This document shows, one piece after another, positions 1 to 48,083 of a DNA stretch of 64,000 bases. The notes under the pieces were generated by a model that saw only the letters and a program-made list of their open reading frames with translations, had not been told where the DNA came from and did not search any database. Every line of letters begins with the position of its first letter. Within the stretch, counting starts at the first letter, position 1. The translations under genes were made by a program, and so were the position numbers. Source of the stretch: an uncultured bacterium (GTDB lineage: Bacteria > Patescibacteriota > Minisyncoccia > Phycocordibacterales > CAIRYW01); contig CAVYBO010000002.1 of assembly GCA_963766885.1 (NCBI GenBank), positions 86,097-150,096 of the forward strand. Direction: 5' to 3'.

Positions 1-507
1 CTAAAGTTGCTTTACAGCTTCTTCTAGAAAAGTTTTATCACGAGCAACAATAAATGGCCCGTTATAATCCCTTGGAATATTTTTTGAAACCAATTCTATT
101 GCTTCTGATATTGGAACCCAAATTGGTGCTATAAAACCTTCATCAATTTCATGTTTGGTAAAATCTGTTTTACCTTTTTCTCCTATCACTTTTGCAATAA
201 AACAATAAGAAGTTTGTTTTAGAGAAGATTGATTCGCTCTGAATTCAAGAATTTCACCAAGTTCTTTTATTATTTCAATTTCACAACCGATTTCTTCCAT
301 ACATTCTCTTTTTGTTGCATCAATAATTTCTTCGCCATCTTCAATGCCTCCACCTGGAAGCTTATAATAATTATGTTTCGTTACTGGAAGCAAAGCCACT
401 AAATTATTTTCATCAAATACCACAGCTCTTGCAGCCCGCCTAACCCTAAAATTGGAGGCTTCTTTTTCTGTAACATTTTCCGGGTTTATTGTTGCTAGAT
501 GTTTCAT
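1..507 (-). CDS. NUDIX hydrolase
   Basis: The 168-aa ORF carries a NUDIX box G-x5-E-x7-REcxEExGc (GGIEDGEEIIDATKRECMEEIGC). The stop codon is the first 3 nt of the window. Confidence 0.8.
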   Translation of the reverse strand: MKHLATINPENVTEKEASNFRVRRAARAVVFDENNLVALLPVTKHNYYKLPGGGIEDGEEIIDATKRECMEEIGCEIEIIKELGEILEFRANQSSLKQTSYCFIAKVIGEKGKTDFTKHEIDEGFIAPIWVPISEAIELVSKNIPRDYNGPFIVARDKTFLEEAVKQL

Positions 508-511
508 TTAT

Positions 512-952
512 TTAATATTTATCCCACCCAAACTCCGAGTAAAAAATTCCTTTCCTGTAGCATTCGATGGCTTCTCTGATATATGGAATAGTATTATCCG
601 GTAAATTACTGATATCAAACCAACTAAGATCACTACATTTGTTTGGTTCGGTGTTTGTGATTTCTCCTTTCCATTTTTTTGACTCAAAGAAGAAATCTAT
701 TCTTTCGTCATTACCTATTCTGTGCATTACTACTTTTAAGTCTAAATCATTCGGATCAATGTCCACTCCGCTTTCTTCTTTTGCTTCTCTGGCAGCTGCA
801 AAAGTCATAGCTTCGTTTCCATCTACATGTCCTGCAACAAGACTATAGTTTCCATCTTCATATCCTGTATTTGTTCTGCGAAGAAGCAGTGTCTTTTCTT
901 CTTTTCTGAAGAACAAGTAAACTGATGCAATTAATTTAAATTTTTCTTTCAC
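512..952 (-). CDS. NUDIX hydrolase (second, tandem)
   Basis: The 146-aa ORF carries a NUDIX box GHVDGNEAMTFAAAREAKEESGV. It is packed 4 nt from the previous NUDIX gene. Confidence 0.8.
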   Translation of the reverse strand: MKEKFKLIASVYLFFRKEEKTLLLRRTNTGYEDGNYSLVAGHVDGNEAMTFAAAREAKEESGVDIDPNDLDLKVVMHRIGNDERIDFFFESKKWKGEITNTEPNKCSDLSWFDISNLPDNTIPYIREAIECYRKGIFYSEFGWDKY

Positions 953-1365
953 GTTATTTTATTCAAATCACCATTTAGTATAACCGGTTTCATTGCTTCA
1001 AGCTCATCACGGTAAGATAAATTTGGTAGAGGATTCAATATATAAATTAGTTTATCAAGTACATGCGCAAATCCCATTTCAAGAAAAGTATTACCACCAA
1101 TGTATCCTTCAATCCCTTTCTTTTCTTCATTAATTACGAGTACTAAATCGTAGTCTTTCATTTTCTCGTAATAATCTTTTATTAGATTATTGTCTATTTT
1201 ATTTTTTACGCTTTCCTTTGGATTTGCATGTGTGTAATTGTTGGCGACATATCTTTTTACACCCCAAGGAATTTCTACTTCGAAACCTTTTTGTTCTAAT
1301 TCTTTCTTGATGCGGAGTACCTTATCGGCCGCTGATATTGAACAACAAATAATTATTTTTTTCAT
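949..1365 (-). CDS. nucleoside 2-deoxyribosyltransferase-like protein (NDT/DNPH1 superfamily)
   Basis: The 138-aa ORF has an N-terminal beta-strand KIIIC. Its C-terminal motif GGNTFLEMGFAHVLDKLIYIL matches the DxGTxxExGxA core of NDT/Rcl-type N-glycosidases. Confidence 0.5.
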   Translation of the reverse strand: MKKIIICCSISAADKVLRIKKELEQKGFEVEIPWGVKRYVANNYTHANPKESVKNKIDNNLIKDYYEKMKDYDLVLVINEEKKGIEGYIGGNTFLEMGFAHVLDKLIYILNPLPNLSYRDELEAMKPVILNGDLNKIT

Positions 1366-1369
1366 TAAA

Positions 1370-1978
1370 TTATTTTTTTAATGCTACTCCTTTGTAACGA
1401 TAAAAAAGTGGTCTGAACTCCTCTTCTGACTTTTCAAGACTTAAAATCTTAAAACCAGCACCAGTGATCAAGTCATCCATCTTTCTATCCAGATTACATC
1501 CTCCTGCATACCATTTTGAAAAAGGGTTACATATTTTTTGTAATCTACCATTAATTTTTTTTGGCGATAGGCCGTGCTCGATGAAAAATAATTTTCCTTC
1601 TGGTTTTAGGACTCTTATTAATTCCTTTAGTGCTAATGGCAAGTCTGGAATACTACATAAACTCCAAGTAGAAACAATTGTATCAACACTATTCGAAGCC
1701 AAAGGAACATTTTCAGCAGATACATTCAAATGTTCAACTGGAAATTTAGCAGTACGGATTCTCTCTTTGGCAAGATTATATAATTCAGAAGAGGGATCAA
1801 TAGCATATAGCTTTGAAACATTTTTATAGAAAGGAAGATTTAATCCTGATCCAAAACCAACTTCAAGCACAACTCCAGAAGCATCTTCTACCACATCTGC
1901 TCGGGTTTTTTCTGTATCTTTGTCATCCATCTCGTAGTTCAGTAGTCTGGGTAAGATGTATTTATTGTAGAGGTTCAT
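1370..1978 (-). CDS. class I SAM-dependent methyltransferase (Methyltransf_11-like)
   Basis: The 202-aa ORF has SAM motif I VLEVGFGSGLNL and a post-I acidic residue (AIDPS). Confidence 0.75.
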   Translation of the reverse strand: MNLYNKYILPRLLNYEMDDKDTEKTRADVVEDASGVVLEVGFGSGLNLPFYKNVSKLYAIDPSSELYNLAKERIRTAKFPVEHLNVSAENVPLASNSVDTIVSTWSLCSIPDLPLALKELIRVLKPEGKLFFIEHGLSPKKINGRLQKICNPFSKWYAGGCNLDRKMDDLITGAGFKILSLEKSEEEFRPLFYRYKGVALKK

Positions 1979-1983
1979 AAATT

Positions 1984-3774
1984 TTACTCCAACACCGCTT
2001 TTATTCTTCTAACTCCTTCGCTTACAGCTTCTTCTTTTTGTATTTTGAAGGTGCCTTTGAGTTCGGAAGTGTTTTTGACATGTGGGCCGCCGCAGAATTC
2101 TTTGGAAAAAGCGTGTTCCAAATCATTGCCAATATAATACACATTTACTCTATCTCCATATTTGTCTCCAAAAAAGTGCAACGCGCCGGTTTTTTCAGCT
2201 TCATCCTTTGGCAGATTGATTAAATTCACAGGCAAAGCCTCGAAGATTTTTTCATTTACGATTTCTTCGACCTTTTTTCTTTCCACATCTGTCATTTTCT
2301 TTGGATGAGTAAAGTCAAAGCGGAGGCGCTCTGGTGTGATGTTACTTCCCTTTTGTGACACGTGATTTCCCAAAACTTCTCGCAGTGCTTGATGAAGCAA
2401 ATGTGTGGCTGTGTGATATTGAATTGTTTTTTCGTCTGTTCCGCCAAGTCCGCCTTTAAACTTTTTCTCTGCGCCAGCGCGAGAAAGTTCTTGATGTTTT
2501 TTAAATTCTTCTTCAAATTGCTTGTCATCAATTGCAATCCCCTTTTCCTTTGCTAATTCTTTTGTCAATTCAAACGGAAATCCGTATGTAGAAAAAAGCA
2601 CAAATGCTTCCTTACCAGAAATTCCGTCAGAATATATTTTTTCAAATTGTTTTATCCCATCTTTCAAAGTTTTTCTAAACTTCTGCTCTTCTTTATCAAT
2701 TTCTGTTTTGATTGTTTCTTTTTTTTGTCCAAGTTCGGGATAAACATTTTTATATTTTTCAATCACACTATCCGCAATCCAAAAAAGCGAGCTACGCTTC
2801 ATTCCCAATTTGTCTGCGTGCAGGACTGCCCTTCGCAAAAGCCGCCGCAACACATATCCTTGATCGGTGTTTGATGGCGCCACGCCGTCGCCGATCAAAA
2901 AAACCGCGCTGCGAATATGGTCTGCAATTATCCTTTTGGATCTGCCAAGTTCTCCGTCTGCTGTGGAAAATTCATTTATTTTTTCAATAATAGGAACAAA
3001 TAAATCAGTATCAAAAACAGTTATCTTGCCCTGCACAACTGTCGCGACTCTTTCAAGGCCAGAGCCAGTGTCAACGTTTTGAGATCTTAGTTTACCGATT
3101 ATTTTGCCGTCTTTTTTCTCATATTCCATAAACACATCGTTCCAAATCTCGATTATTTCTCCCTTGTCATCCATTTTTACAAATTGTTTGGGCGTCAGGC
3201 CGTTTGTGTGCTTGCCGCTTGGGTCGTAAAACATTTCGCTGTCTGGGCCGCACGGGCCGTTATCTCCAGGACTCCACCAATTATTTTTGGCTGGCAAAAA
3301 GAAGATTCTTTCTCCCTTGATTTTGTTTCTATCAAAAATTTCCTGCCAGATTTTTGCAGACTCTGTATCGCGCGGAGCGTTATCGTCCCCTTCAAAACAA
3401 GTTATGTAGAGCCTGTTTGGATCCAAACCAAAACCTTCTTTCTTTGAAGTCAAAAGTTCAAAGCTCCAATTGATTGCGTCTTTTTTAAAATAATCTCCCA
3501 AAGACCAATTGCCAAGCATTTCAAAAAAAGTCAGGTGGCGATTGTCGCTGACTTCTTCAATATCATTTGTGCGAAGGCATTTTTGCACGTCCGCAAGCCT
3601 TTTGCCTTTGGGATGAGGCGTTCCAAGCAAATAGGGCACAAAAGGCTGCATGCCTGCGGTATTAAAAAGCACCGAAGGATCATTCTCTGGCACCAAAGGA
3701 GCGGAAGGAATAATTGCGTGCTCCCTTTTTTCAAAAAATTTTAGGAATCTCTGGCGGATTTCTTCGGAATTCAT
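1984..3774 (-). CDS. alaS: alanine--tRNA ligase, minimalist form (catalytic plus editing core, no C-Ala domain)
   Basis: The N-terminus MNSEEIRQRFLKFFEKREHAIIPSAPLVPENDPSVLFNTAGM is the class II AlaRS signature. The editing-domain zinc motifs HxxxH (TATHLLHQAL) and CGGPH are present. The ORF is only 596 aa. Confidence 0.85.
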   Translation of the reverse strand: MNSEEIRQRFLKFFEKREHAIIPSAPLVPENDPSVLFNTAGMQPFVPYLLGTPHPKGKRLADVQKCLRTNDIEEVSDNRHLTFFEMLGNWSLGDYFKKDAINWSFELLTSKKEGFGLDPNRLYITCFEGDDNAPRDTESAKIWQEIFDRNKIKGERIFFLPAKNNWWSPGDNGPCGPDSEMFYDPSGKHTNGLTPKQFVKMDDKGEIIEIWNDVFMEYEKKDGKIIGKLRSQNVDTGSGLERVATVVQGKITVFDTDLFVPIIEKINEFSTADGELGRSKRIIADHIRSAVFLIGDGVAPSNTDQGYVLRRLLRRAVLHADKLGMKRSSLFWIADSVIEKYKNVYPELGQKKETIKTEIDKEEQKFRKTLKDGIKQFEKIYSDGISGKEAFVLFSTYGFPFELTKELAKEKGIAIDDKQFEEEFKKHQELSRAGAEKKFKGGLGGTDEKTIQYHTATHLLHQALREVLGNHVSQKGSNITPERLRFDFTHPKKMTDVERKKVEEIVNEKIFEALPVNLINLPKDEAEKTGALHFFGDKYGDRVNVYYIGNDLEHAFSKEFCGGPHVKNTSELKGTFKIQKEEAVSEGVRRIKAVLE

Positions 3775-3800
3775 GCCAATAAATGTAGCATATTTAGTTT

Positions 3801-4427
3801 TTATTTAAAATTCTTCAATATTTCAAAATCTTTTAGCAGAGTTTCTCTCATACCACCGTTGTAGAGCGCTGCAGCAGGATGATAAAAAGGTATTATTTTT
3901 ATTTTCCCAAAACTTGCATCTGCTTCGTAACTTTTGCCATGGGCTTTGGAAATTGATTCAAGGTCAAGAAACAGCTCAAATTTTTCCATTATGTATTGCA
4001 TTGAAAATCGGCCGAGCGTTGCAATTACTTTGGGCTGGATTATCTCAATCTGTCTATCAAGAAATCCTCCATAAGAGGCAATTTCTTCTGGAGTCGGGTC
4101 TCTGTTTTCTGGCGGACGGTCTTTGACTATATTTGTGATGTAGACGTCTTTTCTATCCAATCCAACATGATTTAAGAGTTCATCTAAAAATTTGCCCGCA
4201 GCTCCGCAAAACGGCCGGCCTTTTTCTGCTTCATTCTTTCCTGGCGCTTCCCCAACAAACATTATTTTGGCAAAGTGACTTCCCTCTCCAAGCACTGGAA
4301 AGTATTTATTTTCTGTTCGGTATTTATACAAAGGCAAAGTTTTAAGTCCCGCAACTTCATCGCGAATTACTTTGAGTTTCTCTCTTCTTTCAGCGGTTTG
4401 TTTTTCTTGTTCTTTTTCAGATGGCAT
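3801..4427 (-). CDS. uracil-DNA glycosylase, family 4
   Basis: The 208-aa ORF has the family-4 UDG motif GEAPG (VGEAPGKNEAEKGRPFCGAAGKFL) and a C-terminal HPAAALY-like segment. Confidence 0.8.
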   Translation of the reverse strand: MPSEKEQEKQTAERREKLKVIRDEVAGLKTLPLYKYRTENKYFPVLGEGSHFAKIMFVGEAPGKNEAEKGRPFCGAAGKFLDELLNHVGLDRKDVYITNIVKDRPPENRDPTPEEIASYGGFLDRQIEIIQPKVIATLGRFSMQYIMEKFELFLDLESISKAHGKSYEADASFGKIKIIPFYHPAAALYNGGMRETLLKDFEILKNFK

Positions 4428-4701
4428 TTTCTCTCATCAAAATTTCTCTTTTGTTTTTGCCTTGAAGACCGTTGTATTTGCCAATTTTGCCGTCGGAATT
4501 TATTACTCTGTGGCACGGTACGTTTTTGTCTTGATTTGCTTTCATAATATTGCCAACAACTCTAAAAGCGTTTGGAGATCCGGCGCGCTTTGCAACTTCC
4601 TTGTAGCTTAAGGTTTTGCCTTTTGGAATTTTCTTTACGATTGCCAAAACTTTTTCTTTAAAAGAGGGTTTCTTTGATTTCTTCTTTATTTTTGTTGTCA
4701 T
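4417..4701 (-). CDS. MGMT-family protein (O6-alkylguanine-DNA alkyltransferase DNA-binding/active-site domain only)
   Basis: The 94-aa ORF has an HTH followed by the PCHRV active-site motif (NVPCHRVINSDGKIG). Confidence 0.7.
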   Translation of the reverse strand: MTTKIKKKSKKPSFKEKVLAIVKKIPKGKTLSYKEVAKRAGSPNAFRVVGNIMKANQDKNVPCHRVINSDGKIGKYNGLQGKNKREILMRENAI

Positions 4702-5491
4702 TGTTTTCTTTTTTAGATTTTATAAATTTGTTTGATTCTTCTGCGGCAAATTTTCTATATGCGCAGTATTCGCAGGTTTCTGACGGCTCTGGAATTCCTT
4801 TCTGTTCCAAAAGTTCTTTGATTTCTAAAATCTTTTTATGAACCCAAGAATCATCCCCTTTATGTGCAATTAATGTTACATCAAACTCCAATTTGCCGTC
4901 AAAAGCTTCCTTGTCTTTTCTGCCGTTTACGTATACGAAATAGCCAGTATCTGAAACTTTAAATCCTTTTTTGCGAAGCAGCCACTGGTAAACTTCCATC
5001 TGCCTTTTGTACTGTGTCTGCCACTTTGTATCGTCAAGCGAATCCATATTACCGTCTTTGCTTGTGGCTTTGTAATCAACGACAATCAGATTGCCTTTCT
5101 TGTCCACCCACACATCATCAATTGCTCCAGTGATAAGCATACCGGTTTCTTGGTCTTTGTATTGAATGCCGACAAAATTTTCTCTCCATTTGTCCAAATC
5201 TTCGTGGCTAAGCGGAATTGCATCAACGCCATATTTTTTCATTAATGGATGCGATTCATTCTTTGCTCTGTGAATGTCAAATTCTTTTTTCAAAAGGGCG
5301 TCAACTGCGATGTTTAGTGTAAAAGACGGTCCTTTTGGCCTGCCGATGCCGAACTTATTGTCAATATAGAAGCATCTTGGACACTCCATAAATAAATCAA
5401 TTTTGGAACGGGATAATTTCCAATTATTGCCGCCGTAATTCCAGGCAACACCTCGAATTTTGGGTTTGGATTCATAAGACATTAGGCTCAT
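4658..5491 (-). CDS. PD-(D/E)XK nuclease, Cas4/RecB-like, with 4 Cys (putative Fe-S)
   Basis: The 277-aa ORF has motif II GAIDDV and motif III VVDYK, plus a QxxxY motif (QMEVYQ). It has an N-terminal CPRC and a C-terminal CEYC. Confidence 0.65.
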   Translation of the reverse strand: MSLMSYESKPKIRGVAWNYGGNNWKLSRSKIDLFMECPRCFYIDNKFGIGRPKGPSFTLNIAVDALLKKEFDIHRAKNESHPLMKKYGVDAIPLSHEDLDKWRENFVGIQYKDQETGMLITGAIDDVWVDKKGNLIVVDYKATSKDGNMDSLDDTKWQTQYKRQMEVYQWLLRKKGFKVSDTGYFVYVNGRKDKEAFDGKLEFDVTLIAHKGDDSWVHKKILEIKELLEQKGIPEPSETCEYCAYRKFAAEESNKFIKSKKENNDNKNKEEIKETLF

Positions 5492-6558
5492 TCTATCACG
5501 CCGCCGCCGAGGCAGATATTTTTGTCGTAAATTACCACTGACTGCCCGGCGGCTGCTGTTTGTGGCTTTTGGAAAACCACACCAAATACATTGTTTTTTT
5601 GCTCAATTTTTACATTTTGCAGTTTTTGATGATAGCGAATCTGCGCCTGGTATTTTTTGTTTTGTTTCGGCATTTCGTTTATCCAATTTGTGTTTCCAAT
5701 CAAAACCCTTCTTGAAATTTTATCTGACTCTTCCTTTAAATCCGCTTTAATTCCCACAGTAATTGTGTTTTTGGAAATATCTTTGTTGATTATATAGAGC
5801 GGCTTGTCATGATCTGTCTTTGCGGTGATTACAAATCCATGCCGCTCGCCTATTGTATAAAAAACAGCGCCATCGTGATGTCCTATAACCCTTCCGAATT
5901 TGTCCAGAACATCTCCTTTGTTAATTTCTATATAATGCGACAAAAATTCCTTCATACTTATGTTGCCAATAAAGCAAATTCCCTGGCTATCTTTTTTTTC
6001 TGCGTTCGGCAAACCGATTTTTTTGGCAATTTTGCGCACTTCTCGCTTCTCCAAGTTTCCAACCGGAAAAATAATTTTAGAAAGCTCAAATTGGGTTAAA
6101 GTCCAAAGAAAATAACTCTGCTCTTTTTCCTCATCAAAGCTTTTAAGCAAATCAAACTTTCCGCCTTTTTCTTTTATCTGAGCGTAATGTCCTGTAGCGA
6201 CAAAATCCGCTCCCATAGAAATTGCTTTTTTGAGAAAAGCGCCAAACTTTATTTCCCTATTGCACATTACGTCTGGATTCGGAGTTCTGCCTGCTTTGTA
6301 TTCAGAAATCATATAATCCGCAACACTTTCCTTATATTCTTTTTCCAAATCAATTGTCACAAAAGGAATTTCCAAATGGGCTGCGGCGCGCATTGCATCG
6401 CGCCGCTCTTCCTTCCAAGTACACTCCATCCATTCAGGCTGCCAAGTCTTTATAAAAGCGCCAACAACATTAAATCTCTGCTTTTTTAGCAGATATGCAG
6501 ATACAGAGCTATCAACTCCGCCCGACAGGCCGACAAAAACTGTTTTATTTTTTATCAT
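5488..6558 (-). CDS. mnmA: tRNA-specific 2-thiouridylase MnmA
   Basis: The ORF has a PP-loop VFVGLSGGVDSSVSA and the conserved MnmA core FVATGHYAQ. Confidence 0.9.
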   Translation of the reverse strand: MIKNKTVFVGLSGGVDSSVSAYLLKKQRFNVVGAFIKTWQPEWMECTWKEERRDAMRAAAHLEIPFVTIDLEKEYKESVADYMISEYKAGRTPNPDVMCNREIKFGAFLKKAISMGADFVATGHYAQIKEKGGKFDLLKSFDEEKEQSYFLWTLTQFELSKIIFPVGNLEKREVRKIAKKIGLPNAEKKDSQGICFIGNISMKEFLSHYIEINKGDVLDKFGRVIGHHDGAVFYTIGERHGFVITAKTDHDKPLYIINKDISKNTITVGIKADLKEESDKISRRVLIGNTNWINEMPKQNKKYQAQIRYHQKLQNVKIEQKNNVFGVVFQKPQTAAAGQSVVIYDKNICLGGGVIE

Positions 6559-6559
6559 T

Positions 6560-7549
6560 TTAATTCAAATACTTTGCCACGTTTGCTTTGTGTTCGGCAA
6601 ATGTAACCGCATAATGCACGTTTCCATCTGTCCCTGTCAAGAAATACAGATAAGCAGTTGTCTTCTTCAATACCACAGCATCATAAGCCGCATTAAGAGC
6701 ATCAAGTCCCGGGTTTGAGATTGCAGTCGGCGGAAGTCCGACATTCAGATAAGTATTGTAAGGAGAATTTATTTTTAGGTCAGCAGGCGCCAAAGAGTCC
6801 GGATCTTTGCTCAGAGCGTAGCCGACCGTTGCATCAGATTCAAGAGGAATATTATTGTTCAATCTGTTTTCAAAAATCTCTGCAACAGTTTCCATATCAG
6901 CTGGCTTTTGAACTTCCTTTTGGACAATAGAAGCAATGGTTACCACTTGTCCTTCGGTATTTTTATTCAAAGCAACAATTTTTGGATTTTCAGATATGAA
7001 TGTTAGATTTAGTTTTTGAACAATGTAGTTTTCAGGGGTTCCGGGGACAAAGAAATATGTATCAGGAAACAGATAACCCTCCAAGGGCTTTGCATCAGCC
7101 AAAAAAGTAGTTTGATTAAACCCGGGCAAATCTGGGGTTAGCCGATTTGCCATATCTTTAGAAGTGAATCCTTCTGGAAAGGTTATTTTAACTTTTGGAA
7201 TTCCGTAATTTCCTACTGCAATTTTATAGGCAATACTTAAAATATCGTCGTAACTTTTAAATTTATAGGGCCCCTCAATTACTTTGCCTTTATCTAAAAT
7301 TATTGAGGAGATGTCAAATAAAGACGGAGACCAAATAATGCCACTGGCGTAAAGTTTTTTGCCAACGGTTTTAATAGTGTCTCCTTTTTCGACAAAAATC
7401 TTATTTCGCGAATTAAGATTTGGTTTGGGCATCAAAACTATAAGCAGTAAAAAAACAAAAATTATAAAAATAATTTTGAAAACCAATATAAAAATTTTCA
7501 TAAACTCGGTATTGTAATCAAAAGGAGTATTTGTTTGGCTTTCTTCCAT
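6560..7549 (-). CDS. mltG: endolytic murein transglycosylase MltG (YceG family)
   Basis: The 329-aa ORF has an N-terminal TM and a YceG core IASIVQKEVQ....LESDATVGYAL. Confidence 0.8.
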   Translation of the reverse strand: MEESQTNTPFDYNTEFMKIFILVFKIIFIIFVFLLLIVLMPKPNLNSRNKIFVEKGDTIKTVGKKLYASGIIWSPSLFDISSIILDKGKVIEGPYKFKSYDDILSIAYKIAVGNYGIPKVKITFPEGFTSKDMANRLTPDLPGFNQTTFLADAKPLEGYLFPDTYFFVPGTPENYIVQKLNLTFISENPKIVALNKNTEGQVVTIASIVQKEVQKPADMETVAEIFENRLNNNIPLESDATVGYALSKDPDSLAPADLKINSPYNTYLNVGLPPTAISNPGLDALNAAYDAVVLKKTTAYLYFLTGTDGNVHYAVTFAEHKANVAKYLN

Positions 7550-7554
7550 CTTAA

Positions 7555-8778
7555 TTATATTGGAAGATTTGAAGGAGCGTCAGATTTTTTGGCTTCTATT
7601 CTTTGAATTGTCGGGGTCTTGGCAACTTCTCCTGGGAAGTGATAGATCGTAGCTAGACTTTCTGTATTCATTGTAAAGAAATGCATTTTAAATGGATCGT
7701 GAAAAGCTGCTCGAAGCTGGAACGTCTCAAGAGCGTGGTGTTTTTTGTGGATTAATTTTTTTCCCGAGAGATCCTGCCAGGGATATTTGAAGCTTGTTTC
7801 ATGGTCGTTTTCAAAACTGTTTAAATGCGCGGAATTGTATTGTTTGAATGAGCCGTTAAAACCTGCGATGCTTGATTCGTTGAATTTATCTACTGGGGCT
7901 AAATATATTCCTCTGATACAGGTGTCGAAAGCCAACTTAGAGATATTCTGCTGAATGGAATCTATAACTTCTTTATCCTTTTTTGAAAGAGCTGAGCCTT
8001 CAATACTGATTCCATTTAAATCAGTTTTTCCGCTTTCCTTTAATTTTTTAACTTCCTCTTTTCCATGGTAAGTCCAGTCTACCTTTTCAAACCAGGTGCC
8101 TGGCTTTTGGCGCTCTTTTTTGTGAGCTCGAATTATAATTTGCAACCACGCCTCCTCTCCTGCTCGTAAAGATCCCATATATTCGAGAAGCGGTGTCATG
8201 GGATCGATTTTAAATTCCTCATCAGGATTCTTGTCCATCCCATAATAAATATAGGAAAGGATCGGGTAATGGTCGGCTTTTGAAAGCCTGAAATTTGAGC
8301 CCCATAAATCAATTTTCCTTTTATCAAAATGCGCACGCTGCGTGTAATCCTTCACTTCAGAAACTTCAACATCCGGAAATTGAGCGTATATTGATGAAAC
8401 AACAAAATCTTTCCAAAATTTCCAAGTCCAAATATAGAAGTGAATTTCTCCGCCAAATGAAGCAATTTCAAGTGAGAACCAAGGACGCACTTTTCCGTTA
8501 ACGTATTTTGCTATCCATGTGCTTTCGCCTTTGGTCTGATAAAGCGAAGAGAGAAAAAGCTCCATTGCCAGCGGAGATTTTGGCAACAGTTTTGAAAGCT
8601 TTACTTCCAAAATGCAGGGTTCTTGAGAAAGGATAAATTTATTTCGCTTGTAGGAAAGATAATTTTTGAAGCAGAGGCTCAAAAAAACAATTGGCCCAAA
8701 AAGTATCGCCAAAAGCCACGCGTATCCAATAGCAGAAGTTATAATGTCCTGAAAAGGGCTAATTAAATTCGCATTCAT
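7555..8778 (-). CDS. hypothetical membrane protein
   Basis: The 407-aa ORF has two N-terminal TM segments and no recognisable motif. It lies in the same tightly packed minus-strand run. Confidence 0.5.
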   Translation of the reverse strand: MNANLISPFQDIITSAIGYAWLLAILFGPIVFLSLCFKNYLSYKRNKFILSQEPCILEVKLSKLLPKSPLAMELFLSSLYQTKGESTWIAKYVNGKVRPWFSLEIASFGGEIHFYIWTWKFWKDFVVSSIYAQFPDVEVSEVKDYTQRAHFDKRKIDLWGSNFRLSKADHYPILSYIYYGMDKNPDEEFKIDPMTPLLEYMGSLRAGEEAWLQIIIRAHKKERQKPGTWFEKVDWTYHGKEEVKKLKESGKTDLNGISIEGSALSKKDKEVIDSIQQNISKLAFDTCIRGIYLAPVDKFNESSIAGFNGSFKQYNSAHLNSFENDHETSFKYPWQDLSGKKLIHKKHHALETFQLRAAFHDPFKMHFFTMNTESLATIYHFPGEVAKTPTIQRIEAKKSDAPSNLPI

Positions 8779-8823
8779 TAAAATATAATAACATCTATCT
8801 ATAAATGCAGAAAACTGAAAAAC

Positions 8824-9858
8824 TTATTTTGCCAAACCGTATCTGTTTTCTTTGTCCTTCTTAAAATACTTGGAATTTTGAAGATTAACCATAATCGTGT
8901 TTTCCTTGACATATCGTTCTTTCATTACTTTTTCAACAATTTCCTTTTTGGTCAGAGGACCGTTTTTTTCTAGAATCTTTTTGATAACATCTCTTACGAT
9001 GCCGTTAATATAGCCCCACTCAGTAAGAGCATAAAGTCCTCGTCCGACTAGTACGAAGCGCGGGTCTTTTATCAGTTCGTTGTGTGTTGTCGCAACATGG
9101 GCTTTTTTAGAAAACATTTTTTCTATGGATTTTGCCACCTCGCTAAAATGAATCGGAGAGCCGTGTTTTCTAATTGCGAGGTATGCGTAATCTCTGATGC
9201 CTTTTACCGAAACATTTTTAGAATCTGCCATTCCCCATTCTCCCAAAGGATTCTTGCCGATTTTTTTAGATATTGAAAGCCAGCGCTTGAGCACTTCGGC
9301 ATCGCGATAATTTTGGTTGATGTCTTCCAGGTGTTTGAGAAATCTCTCAATTATTTCCGATTCCGGCAAAAGTTCGTCGTCAGAAAGCGATTTGTATAAT
9401 TTTTTCAGCGCTTCTTCAACTTTTCTTGCGTCTGGGTCGCTTATATGCCACCGATGCTTAAAGTCTTCGTCTTCTTTAGAACGCTTGAACATATCTCCTG
9501 CCACCAAAAGAAAATAAAGATGGTTCTGAAGAGATTTGTCTTTTGGCGCCATTAAATTTAGAAAATCTTCTTCTGCAATGATGCCGCCAAGAGACGAAAT
9601 TTGAGATTTGAGTTTTTCAAAAATTTCCGATGATTCTTTGTAGGTTTTGGACTTTCTTATATTCGCAAGAGCGGCGTTTTCGATTTGTCTTACACGCTCC
9701 CTTGTTATGTGATATTTCTGGCCTATGGCTTCCAGCGTATTTTTTTCTTGGTCTTTTCCAAGCCCGAATCTTGATATCAGAACATCGCGTCCTTTTGGAG
9801 TTATTCCGTCGAGAAGTTTTTTAACTATTGATTTTGGCTTGAAGTCTAATGTAGCCAT
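8824..9858 (-). CDS. sigma-70 region-4-like HTH domain protein (CPR-type)
   Basis: The N-terminal segment GLGKDQEKNTLEAIGQKYHITRERVRQIENAALANIRK resembles sigma-70 region 4. The remaining 250 aa are helical and of unknown function. Confidence 0.55.
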   Translation of the reverse strand: MATLDFKPKSIVKKLLDGITPKGRDVLISRFGLGKDQEKNTLEAIGQKYHITRERVRQIENAALANIRKSKTYKESSEIFEKLKSQISSLGGIIAEEDFLNLMAPKDKSLQNHLYFLLVAGDMFKRSKEDEDFKHRWHISDPDARKVEEALKKLYKSLSDDELLPESEIIERFLKHLEDINQNYRDAEVLKRWLSISKKIGKNPLGEWGMADSKNVSVKGIRDYAYLAIRKHGSPIHFSEVAKSIEKMFSKKAHVATTHNELIKDPRFVLVGRGLYALTEWGYINGIVRDVIKKILEKNGPLTKKEIVEKVMKERYVKENTIMVNLQNSKYFKKDKENRYGLAK

Positions 9859-9933
9859 TTTGAAGGTTTTAATCGTTTAATCTAAGCTGTTACCTATTAT
9901 TTCTATCATTGTTAATAATTAAAGTCAATAGCA

Positions 9934-12843
9934 TCAGTTTTTAACCACAAAATTGACTATTTTGTTCTTCACTACTATCGTCTTTATCACATTTTTTCCA
10001 TCAATTTTTGTGGCAATTTGTGGCAGTTTTTTTATTTTTTCCAAGACAATATTTTCTTCAGCATCTTTTTTCACCTCTATTGTTCCTCTTGTCTTGCCGT
10101 TGATCTGAATTGCTATTGTTACTTGCTCATTTTCAACTATTTTTGAATCAAAATTTGGCCATTTTGAGGCAAAAATAGAATTCTTGTTACCAATCTCCTT
10201 CCATAATTCTTCACAGGTGTGTGGAGCAAATGGAGAAAGGATTATTAATAATTTTTCAAAAGATTTTTTAGTAATTGATTTGTGCTCATAGATACTATTT
10301 GTACAGATCATAAGTGCAGAAATTGCTGTGTTGAATGCCGTGCTTTCAATATCCTCGCCGACTTTTTTGATTACTTTATTGATTGCGATTGTTACTTCTT
10401 TGGGTTCGCTTTTTGTAATCAATTCTTTTATTCCAAAAACTCTTTCAATAAATCTTCTCGCACCGATGATGCCTTTGTCATTCCATGCAATCTGAGCTTC
10501 GTGCGGGCCGAGGAAGGCCATATAAACTCGCATGGTGTCTGCTCCGTAAAGTTTGACGATATCATCCGGATTGACCACGTTTCCCCTGCTCTTGCTCATT
10601 TTTTCGCCATCTGGACCAAGGATTATTCCGTGAGGAATTCTTTTGGTAAAAGGTTCTTTGGCCGTGACAAGTTTTTGGTCATACAAAAATTGATTCCAAA
10701 ATCTTGAATACAAAAGATGTAGAGTGGTGTGTTCCATTCCACCCAAATAAATATCCACAGGGGTCCAATATTTTTGTTTTTTAATGTCAGCAAATTCCTT
10801 TGTATTTTTTGGATCAGTGTATCGAAGCCAATACCAAGAACTTCCCGCCCACTGCGGCATTGTGTTTGTTTCGCGCTTTGCGTTGCCTTTGCATATTGGA
10901 CATTTCGTATTTACCCATTTATCAATTTTAGCCAGCGGCGATTCGCCTGTGCCTGTTGGTTCGTAGTTTTTTACCTTTGGTAAGATCACAGGCAAATCTT
11001 TGTCAGGTACGGGCACAGCGCCGTGCTTGTCGCAATGAATTACAGGAATCGGCTCGCCCCAATATCTCTGGCGGGAAAACACCCAGTCGCGAAGTTTATA
11101 TTTTGTAACAATTTTTCCTCCTACAAATTCTATAATTCTTTTAATCGCTTCACCGCTTGAAAGTTCCGAAAAATTTCCAGAATTTATAACTTTACCTTTG
11201 CCTGTGAATATATGATCTTCTTTTGAGTTAAGCGCTCGCCAGATGGCCGATATTTCTCCTACAGGATTAAATGATTTTGGTATTGATTCATATGGAACCC
11301 AAGAAATACTGTGCTTGGATTTTTCTTCATCATTTATTTCGTCATGAAGATCATCTGCTAAAACTAATTCAAAAACATGCATATGCGCGTACCGATTCTC
11401 ATCTTTGTGCTCGGCATACCATTCAGAACGCATTTCATGTCCAATGCGTCTAATTGATGAAAAGTTTTTATAACCAGTTTCTTCATAAACTTCACGTTTT
11501 ACTGCATCTTCAAGATTTTCATTATTTTCGGCACCACCAATTACAAAAGTTTTCCATGGAAACTTTTTCCAAACAATCTGGAGGACAGCATTATTTTTTA
11601 AATTTCTTACAATCCCCTGCACAACTATTCTCGGAGCATTTTGTTTGTCTTTTCTTGGAGGATTTTTCTCATCAATAAAATGTTCAGCGACAACTTGTCT
11701 TATTGGCAAGTTAAATTTCTTTGCGAATTCAAAATCTCGTGTATCGTGCGCTGGCACAGCCATAATCGCTCCAGTTCCGTAACCACCAAGCACGTAATCA
11801 GCAACAAAAATTGGAATTTCTTTTTGGCTTGCTGGGTTTATTGCCTTTACTCCTTTGAGTTCCACTCCAGTTTTTTCTTTTCCTTCAGAGGTGCGCTCTA
11901 TTTCAGATTTATTTTTTACTTGCCTAATATATTTTTTGACCTCTTCTTTATTTTCAAGGACGTTATGTTCGTTGTCTGTTGCAAGTGTGACCCACAAATG
12001 TTCTGGTGCAAGCACTAAATACGTTGCTCCAAAAATGGTGTCGGGACGAGTGGTAAAAATTTTTAGATGGGCTTTCTCTCCGTTTGGTCCTCGTCTTTTA
12101 TTGTCGTCAGGATTTTTTTTGAAATCCAAGTAAAAATCAATTTCTGCCCCTTCTGATTTACCAATCCAATTCTCTTGCTGGATTTTTACAGCTTCCGGCC
12201 ATTCTGGAAGATGTTTTAATCCTTCCAAAAGCTTTTCTGCATAGTCAGTGATTTTCAGATACCACTGACGAAGTTCTTTTTTCTCAACGGGTGTTCCGCA
12301 GCGTTCGCATTTACCGTCAATTACTTCTTCATTTGCAAGCCCTGTTTTATCTTTTGGACACCAATTGATCAAGCCTGTGGCTTCATACGCCAAACCCTTG
12401 CTCAAAAGTTCCAAAAATATTTTCTGCGTCCACTTATAATATTTTGGATCGCTCGTATTTATTTCTCTTGACCAATCAAACCCTGTGCCCCAACTCATGA
12501 GCTGCTTTTTGGCATTTGCAATATTTTTTTTAGTAGAAACTTCTGGATGGACTTTGTTTTTGATCGCATAGTTTTCGGCGGGTAATCCAAAAGCATCCCA
12601 ACCAATTGGATAAACAGTATTTAATTCTTTCAGTTTGTAATATTTTGACATTGCGTCTCCTGCAAGATATGGCCGAAGGTGTCCCATATGAAGTCCTGCT
12701 CCAGAAGGGTATGGGAATTCAATCAAAACATATTTTTTCTTACCTTTGTTTTCTTTACTATTTTCTTTTGCCTCAAAAACTTTTTTGGATTTCCAAAAGT
12801 TCTGCCATTTCTTTTCAATTTTCTTCGGATCGTATTTATTCAT
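9934..12843 (-). CDS. leuS: leucine--tRNA ligase with an inserted NUDIX domain
   Basis: The ORF has the HMGH class I motif (PYPSGAGLHMGHLRPY), KMSKS (GEKMSKSRGN) and the editing-domain end VPAHDTRDFEFAKKFNLPI. It has a roughly 150-aa insert with the NUDIX box GGAENNENLEDAVKREVYEETGY (nt 11470-11538 on the minus strand) before KLRDWVFSRQRYWGEPIP. Confidence 0.9.
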   Translation of the reverse strand: MNKYDPKKIEKKWQNFWKSKKVFEAKENSKENKGKKKYVLIEFPYPSGAGLHMGHLRPYLAGDAMSKYYKLKELNTVYPIGWDAFGLPAENYAIKNKVHPEVSTKKNIANAKKQLMSWGTGFDWSREINTSDPKYYKWTQKIFLELLSKGLAYEATGLINWCPKDKTGLANEEVIDGKCERCGTPVEKKELRQWYLKITDYAEKLLEGLKHLPEWPEAVKIQQENWIGKSEGAEIDFYLDFKKNPDDNKRRGPNGEKAHLKIFTTRPDTIFGATYLVLAPEHLWVTLATDNEHNVLENKEEVKKYIRQVKNKSEIERTSEGKEKTGVELKGVKAINPASQKEIPIFVADYVLGGYGTGAIMAVPAHDTRDFEFAKKFNLPIRQVVAEHFIDEKNPPRKDKQNAPRIVVQGIVRNLKNNAVLQIVWKKFPWKTFVIGGAENNENLEDAVKREVYEETGYKNFSSIRRIGHEMRSEWYAEHKDENRYAHMHVFELVLADDLHDEINDEEKSKHSISWVPYESIPKSFNPVGEISAIWRALNSKEDHIFTGKGKVINSGNFSELSSGEAIKRIIEFVGGKIVTKYKLRDWVFSRQRYWGEPIPVIHCDKHGAVPVPDKDLPVILPKVKNYEPTGTGESPLAKIDKWVNTKCPICKGNAKRETNTMPQWAGSSWYWLRYTDPKNTKEFADIKKQKYWTPVDIYLGGMEHTTLHLLYSRFWNQFLYDQKLVTAKEPFTKRIPHGIILGPDGEKMSKSRGNVVNPDDIVKLYGADTMRVYMAFLGPHEAQIAWNDKGIIGARRFIERVFGIKELITKSEPKEVTIAINKVIKKVGEDIESTAFNTAISALMICTNSIYEHKSITKKSFEKLLIILSPFAPHTCEELWKEIGNKNSIFASKWPNFDSKIVENEQVTIAIQINGKTRGTIEVKKDAEENIVLEKIKKLPQIATKIDGKNVIKTIVVKNKIVNFVVKN

Positions 12844-13431
12844 TTATCCTTGAATTTTGTTTCCAAACTTTTTTATTGAGAACCAAATTAATGCTCCAAG
12901 CGCAACCGCCAAGACAAAAACTTTTACCAAGCTGTTTGCATAACCCCAATATCTAATTGAAGCGATTAGAAAATCTAAAACGGCGCCGAGCGATAGTGCA
13001 ATAGACAAAACTTCTGAACCGTGGAAAAACAATGCTGCTGCAAATGTGATTACGCCCAAAGTAACAAGAGAAATAAAAATATCTCTGTCGTATGAATTCT
13101 GCGCATTTTCATATTTTTTCTCACAAGTATATGTTGGATTGCAAGAGCCAGTTGGTGCCACGTTAATCTGTTTTAACCCCAAAGCAGTTGGATTAAAAGA
13201 TGGGCCAGCAGGGCTGGGTGTTGGATACTGTGTCCAAGATCCTCCTACTGCGATACAAGTTTGTTGTGTTGTTGGTGTGGTGTTGACCTGTTCTGTCGGG
13301 CAAAAATCATTATATTGCGGAGTTGAAAAAACCAATGAGAGAGCGTAATTATAAAAAAGATTAAGGACAATAACTATTGCAATAACTAGCGACCATTTAA
13401 GAACCTTTGAATTGTTTTTGGTTTGATCCAT
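12844..13431 (-). CDS. hypothetical membrane protein (Thr/Pro/Cys-rich ectodomain, 3 TM)
   Basis: The 195-aa ORF has an N-terminal TM, a Cys-containing TPT-rich segment and C-terminal TM helices. Confidence 0.5.
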   Translation of the reverse strand: MDQTKNNSKVLKWSLVIAIVIVLNLFYNYALSLVFSTPQYNDFCPTEQVNTTPTTQQTCIAVGGSWTQYPTPSPAGPSFNPTALGLKQINVAPTGSCNPTYTCEKKYENAQNSYDRDIFISLVTLGVITFAAALFFHGSEVLSIALSLGAVLDFLIASIRYWGYANSLVKVFVLAVALGALIWFSIKKFGNKIQG

Positions 13432-13775
13432 ATTTTGCTGTTTCTTTATTGGTTTTTTATTGCATGATTTTACAATAGAAACTCTACTTTATCCACTTTT
13501 CTTATAATTGATTTTTAAATTATAAGTTCTAGAATTGTGCTGAACCTTGTTTTTTATGCCAAACCAAGTCCAGTCTTCCCAAAATGATTCTATCAGAACA
13601 CATTCTCAACCAGAATCGGACACAGGTTCTCTGCATCCAGAAGACCTCTATCAAAACTACTACTTTTTGAAGATGGTTGCAGAATACCACGGCGCGGAAT
13701 TGCGCAAATCGCCCGATTTCACAATCAAAAGCCAAGTGCGTTAGTCTCAGAGCGCGCTATTTTATTATAAAAATT

Positions 13776-13796
13776 GCTTCCGTTTTAATCGGAAGC
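13776..13796 (-). terminator. rho-independent terminator after the chorismate mutase-like gene
   Basis: A hairpin gcttccg-ttttaat-cggaagc is followed, on the minus strand, by a U-rich tract (plus-strand ataaaaatt upstream). Confidence 0.5.
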
Positions 13797-47112: not shown

Positions 47113-47232
47113 GAAGTAATTATAATATAAAACGACTTGATTAGCACTTTCATCACTTTTCAAATTTAATTTTGCTTAAATTCATTTTTTCTTATAATCT
47201 ATATCGGTTCGCCTGCCTGACTGCAGGCAAGT

Positions 47233-47303
47233 TGCCGGATCGTCTAATGGTAGGACATCGCCCTTTGGAGGCGGCTATCTTGGTTCGAATCCAAGTCCGG
47301 CAG
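47233..47303 (+). tRNA. tRNA-Gln(TTG)
   Basis: TGCCGGATCGTCTAATGGTAGGACATCGCCCTTTGGAGGCGGCTATCTTGGTTCGAATCCAAGTCCGGCAG has a 7-bp acceptor stem, U8, anticodon loop CTTTGGA and a TTCGAAT T-loop. No CCA is encoded. Confidence 0.8.
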
Positions 47304-47330
47304 TTTTTACTCTGGTATAATCTTAATTAC

Positions 47331-48083
47331 ATGAAAAATATTAAAAAATACACTTATCCTAAAAAATCTGGTTTTTACGATTATGAAGGAGTTCCAACTC
47401 TTTTTATTGATGAAGCAGAGAAAGTCGTTTCTGGGATTAACAAAAAGAAAAATGAATTATCTCTAAATATTCCCATTCATCCTTTAATGGGTCACATGAC
47501 ATGGATTGAACTGAGTCTTGTGATAGGAATAATAAAGTCTTCAGAAGCTAGATCTTTTCTGGAAATAGGAACTTTAGATGGTTTAATTGTTGAGAATATA
47601 TTAAATAATTGTTTAAAAATTGAGAATGTAATAACTATAGATTTACCAGAATCTATACATAAACATAAGGGTTCCGGTTCAAAACTTTTTATAGATAGTA
47701 TTAACGCAGAAATGATAAACACTTTTGTTATTGGTGAAAGATTTTTAAATAATTCTCGTAGAAATATTGTAACTCAAATAAGGAAGGATTCTGCAAAATT
47801 AAAACTAACCGATTTTAAAAATAAGTTCGATGTTATTTTAGTTGATGGTTCTCATACATATGACTATTGTGCTTCAGATACAGAGCTAGCAAAAAAACTT
47901 CTTTCAAAAAAAGGAATAATCATCTGGCATGATTTCAATAAAGTAAAAGCCCTTGTTGGTGTTACCGAGTTTCTCTCTGAAGAAGCAAGAAAGAAGGAAT
48001 TTTCACTGTATTGGCTTAAAGATCGTGAATACAACTCTTCTTCTGTAGTAGTTGGTCTCCGTAAATCTGATTTTCAATCATAA
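47331..48083 (+). CDS. class I SAM-dependent methyltransferase (TylF/CmcI Methyltransf_24-like)
   Basis: The ORF has the motifs FLEIGTLDG and DVILVDGSH. It is very AT-rich and starts 28 nt after tRNA-Gln. A TATAAT element sits just upstream. Confidence 0.65.
   Translation: MKNIKKYTYPKKSGFYDYEGVPTLFIDEAEKVVSGINKKKNELSLNIPIHPLMGHMTWIELSLVIGIIKSSEARSFLEIGTLDGLIVENILNNCLKIENVITIDLPESIHKHKGSGSKLFIDSINAEMINTFVIGERFLNNSRRNIVTQIRKDSAKLKLTDFKNKFDVILVDGSHTYDYCASDTELAKKLLSKKGIIIWHDFNKVKALVGVTEFLSEEARKKEFSLYWLKDREYNSSSVVVGLRKSDFQS

Follow-up and report, generated by a model that had tools for sequence, protein, structure and literature searches.

A lineage-specific block of NUDIX, methyltransferase and deoxyribosyltransferase-like genes behind alaS in a CPR bacterium: a putative nucleotide house-cleaning islet

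DNPH1 (2'-deoxynucleoside 5'-phosphate N-hydrolase) is a sanitiser of the nucleotide pool, a homodimer with a catalytic tyrosine (Tyr24) and with phosphate-binding residues contributed by one subunit (S98) and by its partner (S128'). In the bacimethrin pathway, the cytidine monophosphate (CMP) N-glycosidase BcmB, which has the fold of nucleoside 2-deoxyribosyltransferases (NDT), is paired with BcmC, an S-adenosylmethionine (SAM)-dependent methyltransferase. Bacteria of the candidate phyla radiation (CPR) and DPANN archaea are generally believed to have no de novo nucleotide synthesis and to depend on nucleotides scavenged from hosts. Salvage involves no proofreading, and the nucleotide pool is guarded by NUDIX-type sanitisers (PMC12887539). 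Therefore, sanitising enzymes should matter more than usual to CPR and DPANN organisms. Here, we describe a block of four small genes, encoding two NUDIX hydrolases (NudA and NudB), an NDT/DNPH1-like protein and a methyltransferase, which lies behind the alanyl-tRNA synthetase gene alaS at one end of a 64-kb stretch of DNA from an uncultured CPR bacterium (contig CAVYBO010000002.1; the whole stretch analysed is called the window). With a probability of about 60%, we read the block as an inserted accessory set, a nucleotide-pool house-cleaning or salvage islet that is read through from a housekeeping array. The five genes concerned are:

1..507, minus strand: NudA, NUDIX hydrolase, 168 aa (PF00293 E=2.3e-13; 50.7 bits against a cut-off of 21.1)
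512..952, minus strand: NudB, MutT/NUDT1-like NUDIX hydrolase, 146 aa, GTG start (PF00293 E=1.3e-14; 54.8 bits against 21.1)
949..1365, minus strand: NDT/DNPH1-superfamily protein, 138 aa, predicted nucleoside/nucleotide N-glycosidase or transferase (from fold and family alignment)
1370..1978, minus strand: class I SAM-dependent methyltransferase (Methyltransf_11), 202 aa (Pfam E=2e-19)
1984..3774, minus strand: alaS, short-form alanyl-tRNA synthetase (AlaRS), 596 aa (NF002436)

An earlier note on this DNA had described five minus-strand genes with near-zero spacers or overlaps and had assigned them these identities. Both descriptions stand: the open reading frames (ORFs) and their coordinates are as claimed, the spacers are 4, -4, 4 and 5 nt, with the GTG start of NudB overlapping the stop of the NDT-like gene by 4 nt, and the identities are upheld by Pfam and NCBIfam and, for the NDT-like member, by the fold match of an AlphaFold model in Foldseek. 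The note was also right in calling the AlaRS a minimalist form without a C-Ala domain. Residues 1-596 of this protein align to positions 1-593 of NF002436, the 595-position model for short AlaRS (766.6 bits against a cut-off of 529), and Pfam recognises the tRNA-synt_2c and tRNA_SAD domains, which provide the catalytic, tRNA-recognition and editing parts, with no C-Ala/DHHA1 domain. The short AlaRS is the standard form in the related CPR sequences that we recovered, and its C-terminal motif KEEAVS.GVRRIKAVL is kept in the relatives.

The NDT-like protein belongs to a family whose members occur in 522 GTDB species genomes, almost all of them Patescibacteria or DPANN archaea. Some of its homologues carry the name "nucleoside 2-deoxyribosyltransferase" given by the Joint Genome Institute (JGI), and precomputed PF05014 matches exist in a few of them (P0050, P0061, P0107). 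The AlphaFold model of the 138-aa protein, with a predicted local distance difference test (pLDDT) score of 94.2, has an NDT-type flavodoxin-like fold, and nine of its ten best Foldseek matches in the PDB are BcmB, YtoQ, NDT or DNPH1 (probability 1.0, E 1e-4 to 1e-2); TIR and ThsB-like folds appear among the lower-ranked structural neighbours. D73 and E96 are invariant in a 22-sequence alignment of the family, in which mean column identity is 61%. In a weak local hhalign match (E=0.048, against a DNPH1 sequence entered by hand), the two residues line up with D80 and E104 of DNPH1, which serve there as the acid and the nucleophile, respectively (PMC10603095). The best viral matches of the model are N-deoxyribosyltransferases of phages and giant viruses (TM-scores up to 0.65-0.70). 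The model also matches a region of a 412-aa Klosneuvirus (giant virus) protein annotated as "Nudix hydrolase", as well as phage proteins annotated with a dATP/dGTP diphosphohydrolase domain, which hints at fusions of NDT-like and NTP-pyrophosphatase domains in viruses. These multi-domain viral proteins are the BFVD entries A0A1V0SJZ7, A0A6J5LQ71 and A0A6J5S4N9. A profile search of the PDB with the NDT-like family returned chance-level matches only (DegP and others), and the longer homologues P0047, P0064, P0082 and P0089, considered as possible fusions, proved to have mis-called N-terminal extensions.

Read from the translations, the Nudix box GX5EX7REUXEEXGU is canonical in NudA (GGIEDGEEIIDATKRECMEEIGC), in NudB (GHVDGNEAMTFAAAREAKEESGV) and in a third NUDIX domain of the window, the insert in leucyl-tRNA synthetase (LeuRS) described below (GGAENNENLEDAVKREVYEETGY); the three are mutually 24-30% identical over partial alignments. 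The solved structures closest to NudA are generic MutT/nudix proteins, with a diadenosine tetraphosphate (Ap4A) hydrolase as the weakest of seven matches, and the PDB entries closest to NudB are Rickettsia MutT, plant NUDX1, NUDT1 and NudJ. The earlier note was right that NudA and NudB are NUDIX hydrolases, and their generic, MutT/NUDT1-like character speaks against the special link to aminoacyl-tRNA synthetases (aaRS) that it had proposed.

The NudA family comprises 103 representative clusters at E<1e-30 and includes fusions to Maf, to a YjjX-type NTPase_I-T domain, to Methyltransf_11, to a BirA-like domain and to a second NUDIX domain. The second NUDIX domain is 33% identical to NudB, and the methyltransferase domain of the Methyltransf_11 fusion also matches TehB. 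Of these partners, Maf, the YjjX-type NTPase and the second NUDIX come from families with known house-cleaning roles, unlike the BirA-like domain and the methyltransferase. Two of them, the Methyltransf_11 domain and the NudB-like NUDIX, correspond to neighbours of NudA in the window. The NudB family is far larger, with 1269 clusters, and identities among the clusters listed are 60-92%. A 92%-identical NudB paralogue (P0245) is recorded on a contig of the same length (596,164 bp) and is presumably encoded elsewhere in the same genome; we sought its locus and could not find it. Elsewhere, NudB orthologues are found after secA, by a Y1 transposase, or by HAD, kinase, Maf or NUDIX genes. In a close relative (L164), the orthologue lies 2 nt after secA.

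The association between the NDT-like and NUDIX families extends beyond this genome. Among the 522 species genomes, we analysed the neighbourhoods of 80 NDT-like loci. NUDIX is the commonest neighbour family of the NDT-like gene; it accounts for 10 of 156 immediate neighbours, but among genes lying over 3 kb away for 10 of 569 (odds ratio 3.8, P=0.004). The density of NUDIX genes drops with distance: it is 14 per 100 kb in the first 500 nt and 1.3 per 100 kb at 5-8 kb. The closest homologue of the NDT-like protein (70% identical) itself adjoins a NUDIX gene, although the surrounding genes are unrelated to those of the window. HD, Maf, CYTH, PAP2, Metallophos, DUF4406 (a family that is itself NDT-like), His_Phos and P-loop kinase genes also recur nearby. 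Two loci partly repeat the gene order of the window: one (L063) reads methyltransferase, NDT-like, YfhO, NudB (48% identical) and another NUDIX, and the other (L006) reads methyltransferase, DUF4406, NDT-like, a 127-aa ORF and NudB. Methyltransf_11-type genes lie near the NDT-like gene in 3 of 81 loci, the window included, and the rRNA methyltransferase GidB in two more; all NCBIfam matches of the window methyltransferase are far under their cut-offs.

The make-up of the islet around the NDT-like gene varies in almost every genome. One backbone, consisting of GreA, LysRS, a variable islet and SerRS, recurs in about ten genomes, and class I aaRS genes are present in three other loci. The islets between greA-lysS and serS in these roughly ten CPR genomes are made up of HD, NUDIX, NDT-like, CYTH, Maf and PAP2 genes (L028, L039, L042, L043, L046, L047, L061, L079, L082 and others), and at four loci the NDT-like gene follows hpf-secA (L030, L058, L066, L067). 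Overall, an aaRS gene lies within four genes of the NDT-like gene in about 16 of the 80 loci. With about 3% of genes encoding aaRS in such small genomes, the observed proximity is roughly what we estimate that chance would give. The best-supported reading is a variable islet for nucleotide house-cleaning or salvage.

The position of the block behind alaS was compared with that of related genes in other genomes. AlaRS relatives were found encoded in 596 metagenome stretches, and we kept 80 loci in which the match was essentially end to end (AlaRS 49-62% identical), taking 6 kb of flank on each side and 638 kb in total. These loci were scanned for the NDT-like family and for NUDIX domains with hidden Markov models (HMMs), the NUDIX model being one that recognises NudA, NudB and the LeuRS insert, and for relatives of the window methyltransferase. 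Within 6 kb of alaS, the 80 loci gave zero matches to NUDIX, NDT-like or related methyltransferase genes. Conservation of the NUDIX-NUDIX-NDT-methyltransferase-alaS order, which the earlier note had put forward for checking, therefore finds no support in this survey, in which none of the 80 alaS loci had any of the four genes.

What follows alaS in relatives is different. A Logan contig from the same organism, with an identical overlap of 737 nt, continues from NudA into p361, p423, infA and rpsM, where p361 and p423 encode proteins of 361 and 423 aa without a Pfam match. In at least ten relatives, p361-p423-infA-rpsM comes after alaS at a distance of 7-920 nt. Because these relatives have alaS directly before p361-p423-infA-rpsM, without the block genes, the roughly 2 kb at 1-1978 are best read as a lineage-specific insertion between alaS and this conserved set. 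alaS itself is part of the conserved backbone and lies outside the inserted block; upstream of it, mnmA and, in some relatives, leuS, a uracil-DNA glycosylase (UDG) gene, an MGMT-like gene and a PD-(D/E)XK nuclease gene are syntenic. The G+C fraction is 0.335 in the block, the second-lowest value among the window's 32 2-kb bins, 0.406 in alaS and 0.371 in p361 plus p423. This low G+C fits an insertion, as do the 92%-identical NudB paralogue and the varied settings of NudB orthologues in other genomes. The link between alaS and the block thus looks like an accident of position rather than a conserved operon.

A single NDT-like locus, in a Falkowbacteria genome (L035), shows alaS next to an NDT-like gene. 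Its order, a third partial copy of the window arrangement, is mnmA, alaS, NDT-like, an Abi_alpha-like protein, two kinases, His_Phos, NudB, infA and rpsM. At 8609-11351 of this locus, the cargo of the alaS-infA junction includes the Abi_alpha-like gene (E=3e-4, sub-threshold), two P-loop kinase-like genes (AAA_18) and a histidine phosphatase gene.

The ends of the block carry a short direct repeat:

12..25, minus strand: direct repeat copy 1, 14 nt, AGAAGAAGCTGTAA, at the 3' end of NudA
2022..2035, minus strand: direct repeat copy 2, 14 nt, AGAAGAAGCTGTAA, at the 3' end of alaS

The two copies are the only exact occurrences of AGAAGAAGCTGTAA in the window; they lie 2010 nt apart and flank the block (empirical P ~1e-4). 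Each copy encodes "EEAV" as part of a C-terminal motif that is native to its own family, KEEAVS.GVRRI in AlaRS and FL.EA.K.L in NudA. Therefore, the repeat may be a coincidence or microhomology. We set it aside as an insertion scar, given that the copies lie in native motifs and that the swapped gene tails predicted by a single crossover are not seen.

The close packing of the block is not distinctive, since it is the norm for this genome: same-strand genes across the window are separated by a median of 12 nt, and gaps of up to 10 nt make up 24 of the 49. A run of 14 same-strand ORFs at window positions 1-13431, with gaps of at most 75 nt, has the five genes as its tail and goes on past position 1 into p361, p423, infA and rpsM. 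No terminator-like site was found on the minus strand at 1-2000, promoter-like sites are not enriched (33 observed versus 35 expected), and Rfam and ARAGORN scans of 1-14 kb gave no match. A Shine-Dalgarno-like GGAG lies 8 nt 5' of the methyltransferase ATG, within the 3' end of alaS. Judging from this arrangement, co-transcription of the block with alaS is plausible, and transcription of the block probably reads through from the long housekeeping array on the same strand. Any co-regulation with alaS would therefore be positional.

If the block is indeed a house-cleaning islet, a two-step route can be proposed from the predicted families. In the first step, the NUDIX enzymes would hydrolyse non-canonical (d)NTPs or NDP-X compounds, leaving (d)NMPs. 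The NDT/DNPH1-like enzyme would act on these in the second step, cleaving off or exchanging the base via a covalent glutamyl intermediate, with E96 as the nucleophile and D73 as the acid. The products of base cleavage would be the free base and (deoxy)ribose 5-phosphate. Removing the base would stop damaged nucleotides from being re-phosphorylated, and a scavenger might use the (deoxy)ribose 5-phosphate as a carbon source. By analogy, the scheme would parallel the action of human DNPH1 downstream of pool sanitation. What the analysis shows is the identity of the genes at superfamily level, the insertion, and the association of these families in neighbourhood statistics and in fusions; co-transcription, the substrates, the order of the two reactions and any role of the methyltransferase are inferred.

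Several observations weigh against this reading. NudA and NudB both score far below every NCBIfam equivalog cut-off (for example, 32 bits versus 118 for RppH and 22 versus 97.9 for MutT), and their substrates are not predictable from sequence. The NDT-like protein has no Pfam match above threshold, falling short even for PF05014 (E=0.014, 15.9 bits versus 28.8); its Foldseek TM-scores against solved structures of the NDT superfamily are only 0.44-0.59; its profile alignment to the hand-entered DNPH1 sequence is weak, at the E=0.048 given above; and an isoleucine apparently occupies the position of DNPH1 Tyr24 (by eye, IIICGSI versus YFCGSI). Additionally, NUDIX genes adjoin the NDT-like gene in only 9 of the 80 loci, none of five sampled NudB orthologue neighbourhoods contains an NDT-like gene, and the methyltransferase of the window has no orthologue beside the NDT-like gene of L006 or L063. 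Finally, given the Falkowbacteria locus, the islet may hold an older position beside alaS that has been lost repeatedly.

The window contains one further NUDIX domain, within LeuRS:

11224..11670, minus strand: NUDIX insert in the C-terminal part of the connective peptide 1 (CP1) editing domain of LeuRS (about residues 392-540)

The earlier note had pointed to a NUDIX domain embedded in leuS, which would place three NUDIX modules within 13 kb of two aaRS genes, and both Pfam and the Nudix boxes confirm it. The LeuRS is a protein of 969 aa encoded at 9934-12843; PF00293 matches residues 410-524 (43.2 bits versus 21.1), and the match to TIGR00396 (987.4 bits, cut-off 548.4) is split in two by the insert. 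Homologues P0122-P0240 were compared with it. The alignment places the insert between the conserved segments "FAKKYNLPI" and "G.L.NS..F.GL", where insert-free homologues have a short loop. Of the 120 best LeuRS homologue clusters, 94 have the insert, and a regular-expression scan finds a canonical Nudix box in 89 of these 94. In the AlphaFold model of LeuRS, pLDDT is about 90 across the insert, which is only distantly related to NudI and NUDX1 (E ~0.007-0.02). In some LeuRS relatives, different domains occupy other surface loops, in place of the NUDIX insert or in addition to it, including an alpha/beta-hydrolase (for example, P0147), a HAD domain (for example, P0134) and an endonuclease-like domain (P0198: PF04480/PF18741). 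The LeuRS insert is an independent and old domain insertion, widespread and separate from the block beside alaS. We found no description of a NUDIX fusion to LeuRS or another aaRS in CPR in the full-text literature searched.

Other explanations of the block have to be weighed against a house-cleaning islet. The likeliest of them, though an unlikely one, is that there is no functional unit and that four unrelated accessory genes gathered at a permissive junction behind alaS. Such an account would suit the close spacing that is normal throughout this genome, the islets whose composition differs from almost every genome to the next, the NudB orthologues that occur in many contexts without an NDT-like gene, and the other cargo that the alaS-infA/rpsM junction holds in L035. 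The enrichment statistics and the fusions, however, make pure coincidence less likely: beside the NDT-like gene, NUDIX genes are significantly more frequent than farther away, with a decay over distance, and the NudA fusion partners (Methyltransf_11, a NudB-like NUDIX) mirror the window neighbours. Moreover, the neighbours are repeatedly nucleotide or phosphoester hydrolases, and gene order is partly repeated in L006 and L063. It is also tempting to connect the NUDIX enzymes with tRNA charging, for which the three modules within 13 kb of two aaRS genes, the conserved LeuRS fusion with its intact Nudix box in 89 of 94 clusters, the alaS gene directly upstream of an NDT-like gene in L035 and the small-hydrolase islets between lysS and serS in about ten genomes could all be cited. 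In its narrow form, NUDIX would remove Ap4A or diadenosine triphosphate (Ap3A), or act on adenylates, and would hence be co-regulated with aaRS genes. We give this form very little credence: there are zero NUDIX genes in the 638 kb around alaS in 80 relatives and the block is an insertion, aaRS genes lie near the NDT-like gene at close to the estimated chance level (about 16 of 80 loci), NudA, NudB and the LeuRS insert are distant from one another, NudB orthologues sit in unrelated contexts, and the closest PDB relatives are mainly NTP pyrophosphatases of the MutT/NUDT1/NudI type. The recurring aaRS-NUDIX coupling claimed in the earlier note is not supported, given the 0 of 80 alaS loci with a NUDIX gene and the 24-30% identity among the three modules; a non-conserved order and generic MutT-like NUDIX proteins, the outcomes that it had itself named as adverse, are largely what we found for the aaRS part. 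As for its wider idea of a salvage or house-cleaning module tied to tRNA charging, the house-cleaning half is favoured by the NUDIX enrichment and the fusions, and the tie to aaRS is not conserved. A broader possibility, which we regard as a long shot, is that nucleotide house-cleaning in many CPR bacteria is physically wired into tRNA charging, with the NUDIX domain gained by the LeuRS editing domain (in sister lineages, a HAD or alpha/beta-hydrolase domain) as part of it and the aaRS-side islets as a looser expression. The LeuRS NUDIX might then act in cis with aminoacylation, for instance to break down Ap4A or Ap3A, or to clear the synthetase of by-products that stem from non-cognate adenylates or from damaged ATP; another option is that it processes the tRNA 5' end or a nucleotide cap. 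The NUDIX/NDT-like/HD/Maf islets by alaS, lysS, serS and leuS would follow the same logic.

The earlier note had offered a nucleotide-centric signalling or conflict module with NUDIX and SLOG/NDT proteins as an alternative. As a defence system, such a module would make or degrade a nucleotide signal, or would deplete nucleotides when phages attack. The block does look horizontally acquired, given its low G+C, its insertion and the variable composition between genomes, and such a role would agree with the TIR and ThsB-like folds further down the list of structural matches, with the weak, sub-threshold Abi_alpha-like protein of the L035 islet (E=3e-4) and with the many phage-encoded NDT-like proteins. 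However, PADLOC gives generic domain-level matches only (PDC-S07 NUDIX at 33 and 26 bits, the mad2 methyltransferase domain at 39 bits and Drt3b at E=0.004), and the block consists of four small single-domain enzymes, with no sensor, STAND NTPase, effector, toxin or transmembrane component among them. In other genomes, the genes nearby have housekeeping roles or encode well-known house-cleaning enzymes (Maf, HD, CYTH, YjjX), and NudB is highly conserved (60-92% identical among the clusters listed, of 1269), unlike fast-evolving defence genes. We therefore disfavour this alternative and hold it to be as improbable as the narrow coupling to tRNA charging. The least probable of the explanations considered is a small-molecule pathway for producing or detoxifying a modified base in free form. 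It would be similar to the biosynthesis of bacimethrin or mildiomycin, in which a CMP N-glycosidase of NDT fold (BcmB, MilB) is teamed with a SAM methyltransferase; here, the N-glycosidase would release the base and the methyltransferase would methylate it. BcmB is the top structural match of the NDT-like model, a methyltransferase gene lies upstream of the NDT-like gene here (directly) and in L006 and L063, and a NudA::Methyltransf_11 fusion exists. The block has neither a ThyA-like hydroxymethylase nor a kinase, though, and the methyltransferases are not orthologous between genomes. Moreover, a Methyltransf_11-type gene is nearby in only 3 of 81 NDT-like loci, and secondary metabolism is unusual in a genome of about 0.6 Mb.

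Some neighbouring features of the window deserve mention in their own right. Directly upstream of alaS, at 3801-5491 on the minus strand and followed by MnmA, is a DNA-repair trio:

3801-4427, minus strand: UDG-superfamily uracil-DNA glycosylase
4417-4701, minus strand: 94-aa protein consisting of the MGMT C-terminal domain alone, with a PCHR motif
4658-5491, minus strand: Cas4-like PD-(D/E)XK nuclease

Parts of this trio are syntenic with alaS in three of the loci (L083, L086, L111). The upstream end of the long minus-strand run is an ORF-poor gap of 364 nt at 13432-13795, which has no Rfam or tRNA match and near which lie terminator-like hairpins at 13796-13776 (minus strand) and 13735-13758 (plus strand). 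Further along, a plus-strand tRNA-Gln at 47232-47304 falls inside a mechanically called 303-aa plus-strand ORF (47172-48083); therefore, the start of this ORF is probably mis-called or the ORF is spurious.

Our analysis draws attention to an uncharacterised family of NDT/DNPH1 fold, almost confined to CPR and DPANN (522 species genomes), whose genes are often surrounded by NUDIX, HD, Maf and CYTH genes. An attractive idea is shown to lack support, in that the linkage to alaS reflects an insertion specific to this lineage and no conserved aaRS-NUDIX operon. The proposed route, in which a nucleotide is dephosphorylated and then deglycosylated, is directly testable in vitro. The most interesting lead, and the one most worth an experiment, is the LeuRS NUDIX insert, which is widespread, has an intact motif and is apparently undescribed in the literature searched.

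Comparison with known systems places each component near a described family. The AlaRS is like the short-form bacterial AlaRS (NF002436/PRK01584) over its full length, with no notable difference. The LeuRS is, like bacterial LeuRS in general (TIGR00396), a full enzyme with editing and anticodon-binding domains; unlike the standard form, it has a NUDIX domain of about 150 aa in a CP1 loop. MutT/NUDT1 (MTH1), NUDX1, NudI and NudJ, classic sanitisers of the nucleotide pool (PMC12887539), are single-domain proteins of about 145-170 aa with a canonical Nudix box, as are NudA and NudB, and the closest solved structures for NudB, NudA and the LeuRS insert include them; in contrast to the MutT equivalog, the NUDIX proteins of the window remain under the NCBIfam cut-off. 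NDTs have the N-terminal motif YFAGPLF. The NDT/PTD enzymes, including those encoded by phages, have the fold and, putatively, the catalytic glutamate in common with the NDT-like protein, whose N-terminal motif is closer to that of DNPH1 than to that of NDT. The best structural matches are DNPH1/Rcl, BcmB and MilB, which share with it a flavodoxin-like NDT fold of about 140 aa. Its invariant aspartate before strand beta-3 and its invariant glutamate in the next helix align locally with D80 and E104 of DNPH1, and its N-terminal CGSI resembles, by eye, the FCGSIRGG of DNPH1. Unlike DNPH1, it has SAA or SAS in place of the RGG phosphate loop; its family is almost confined to CPR and DPANN-type genomes and shows no significant sequence match to any solved NDT or DNPH1 chain. 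Systems of NUDIX and NDT/DNPH1-type nucleotide sanitisers are of a known kind, of which the window block would be a new member.

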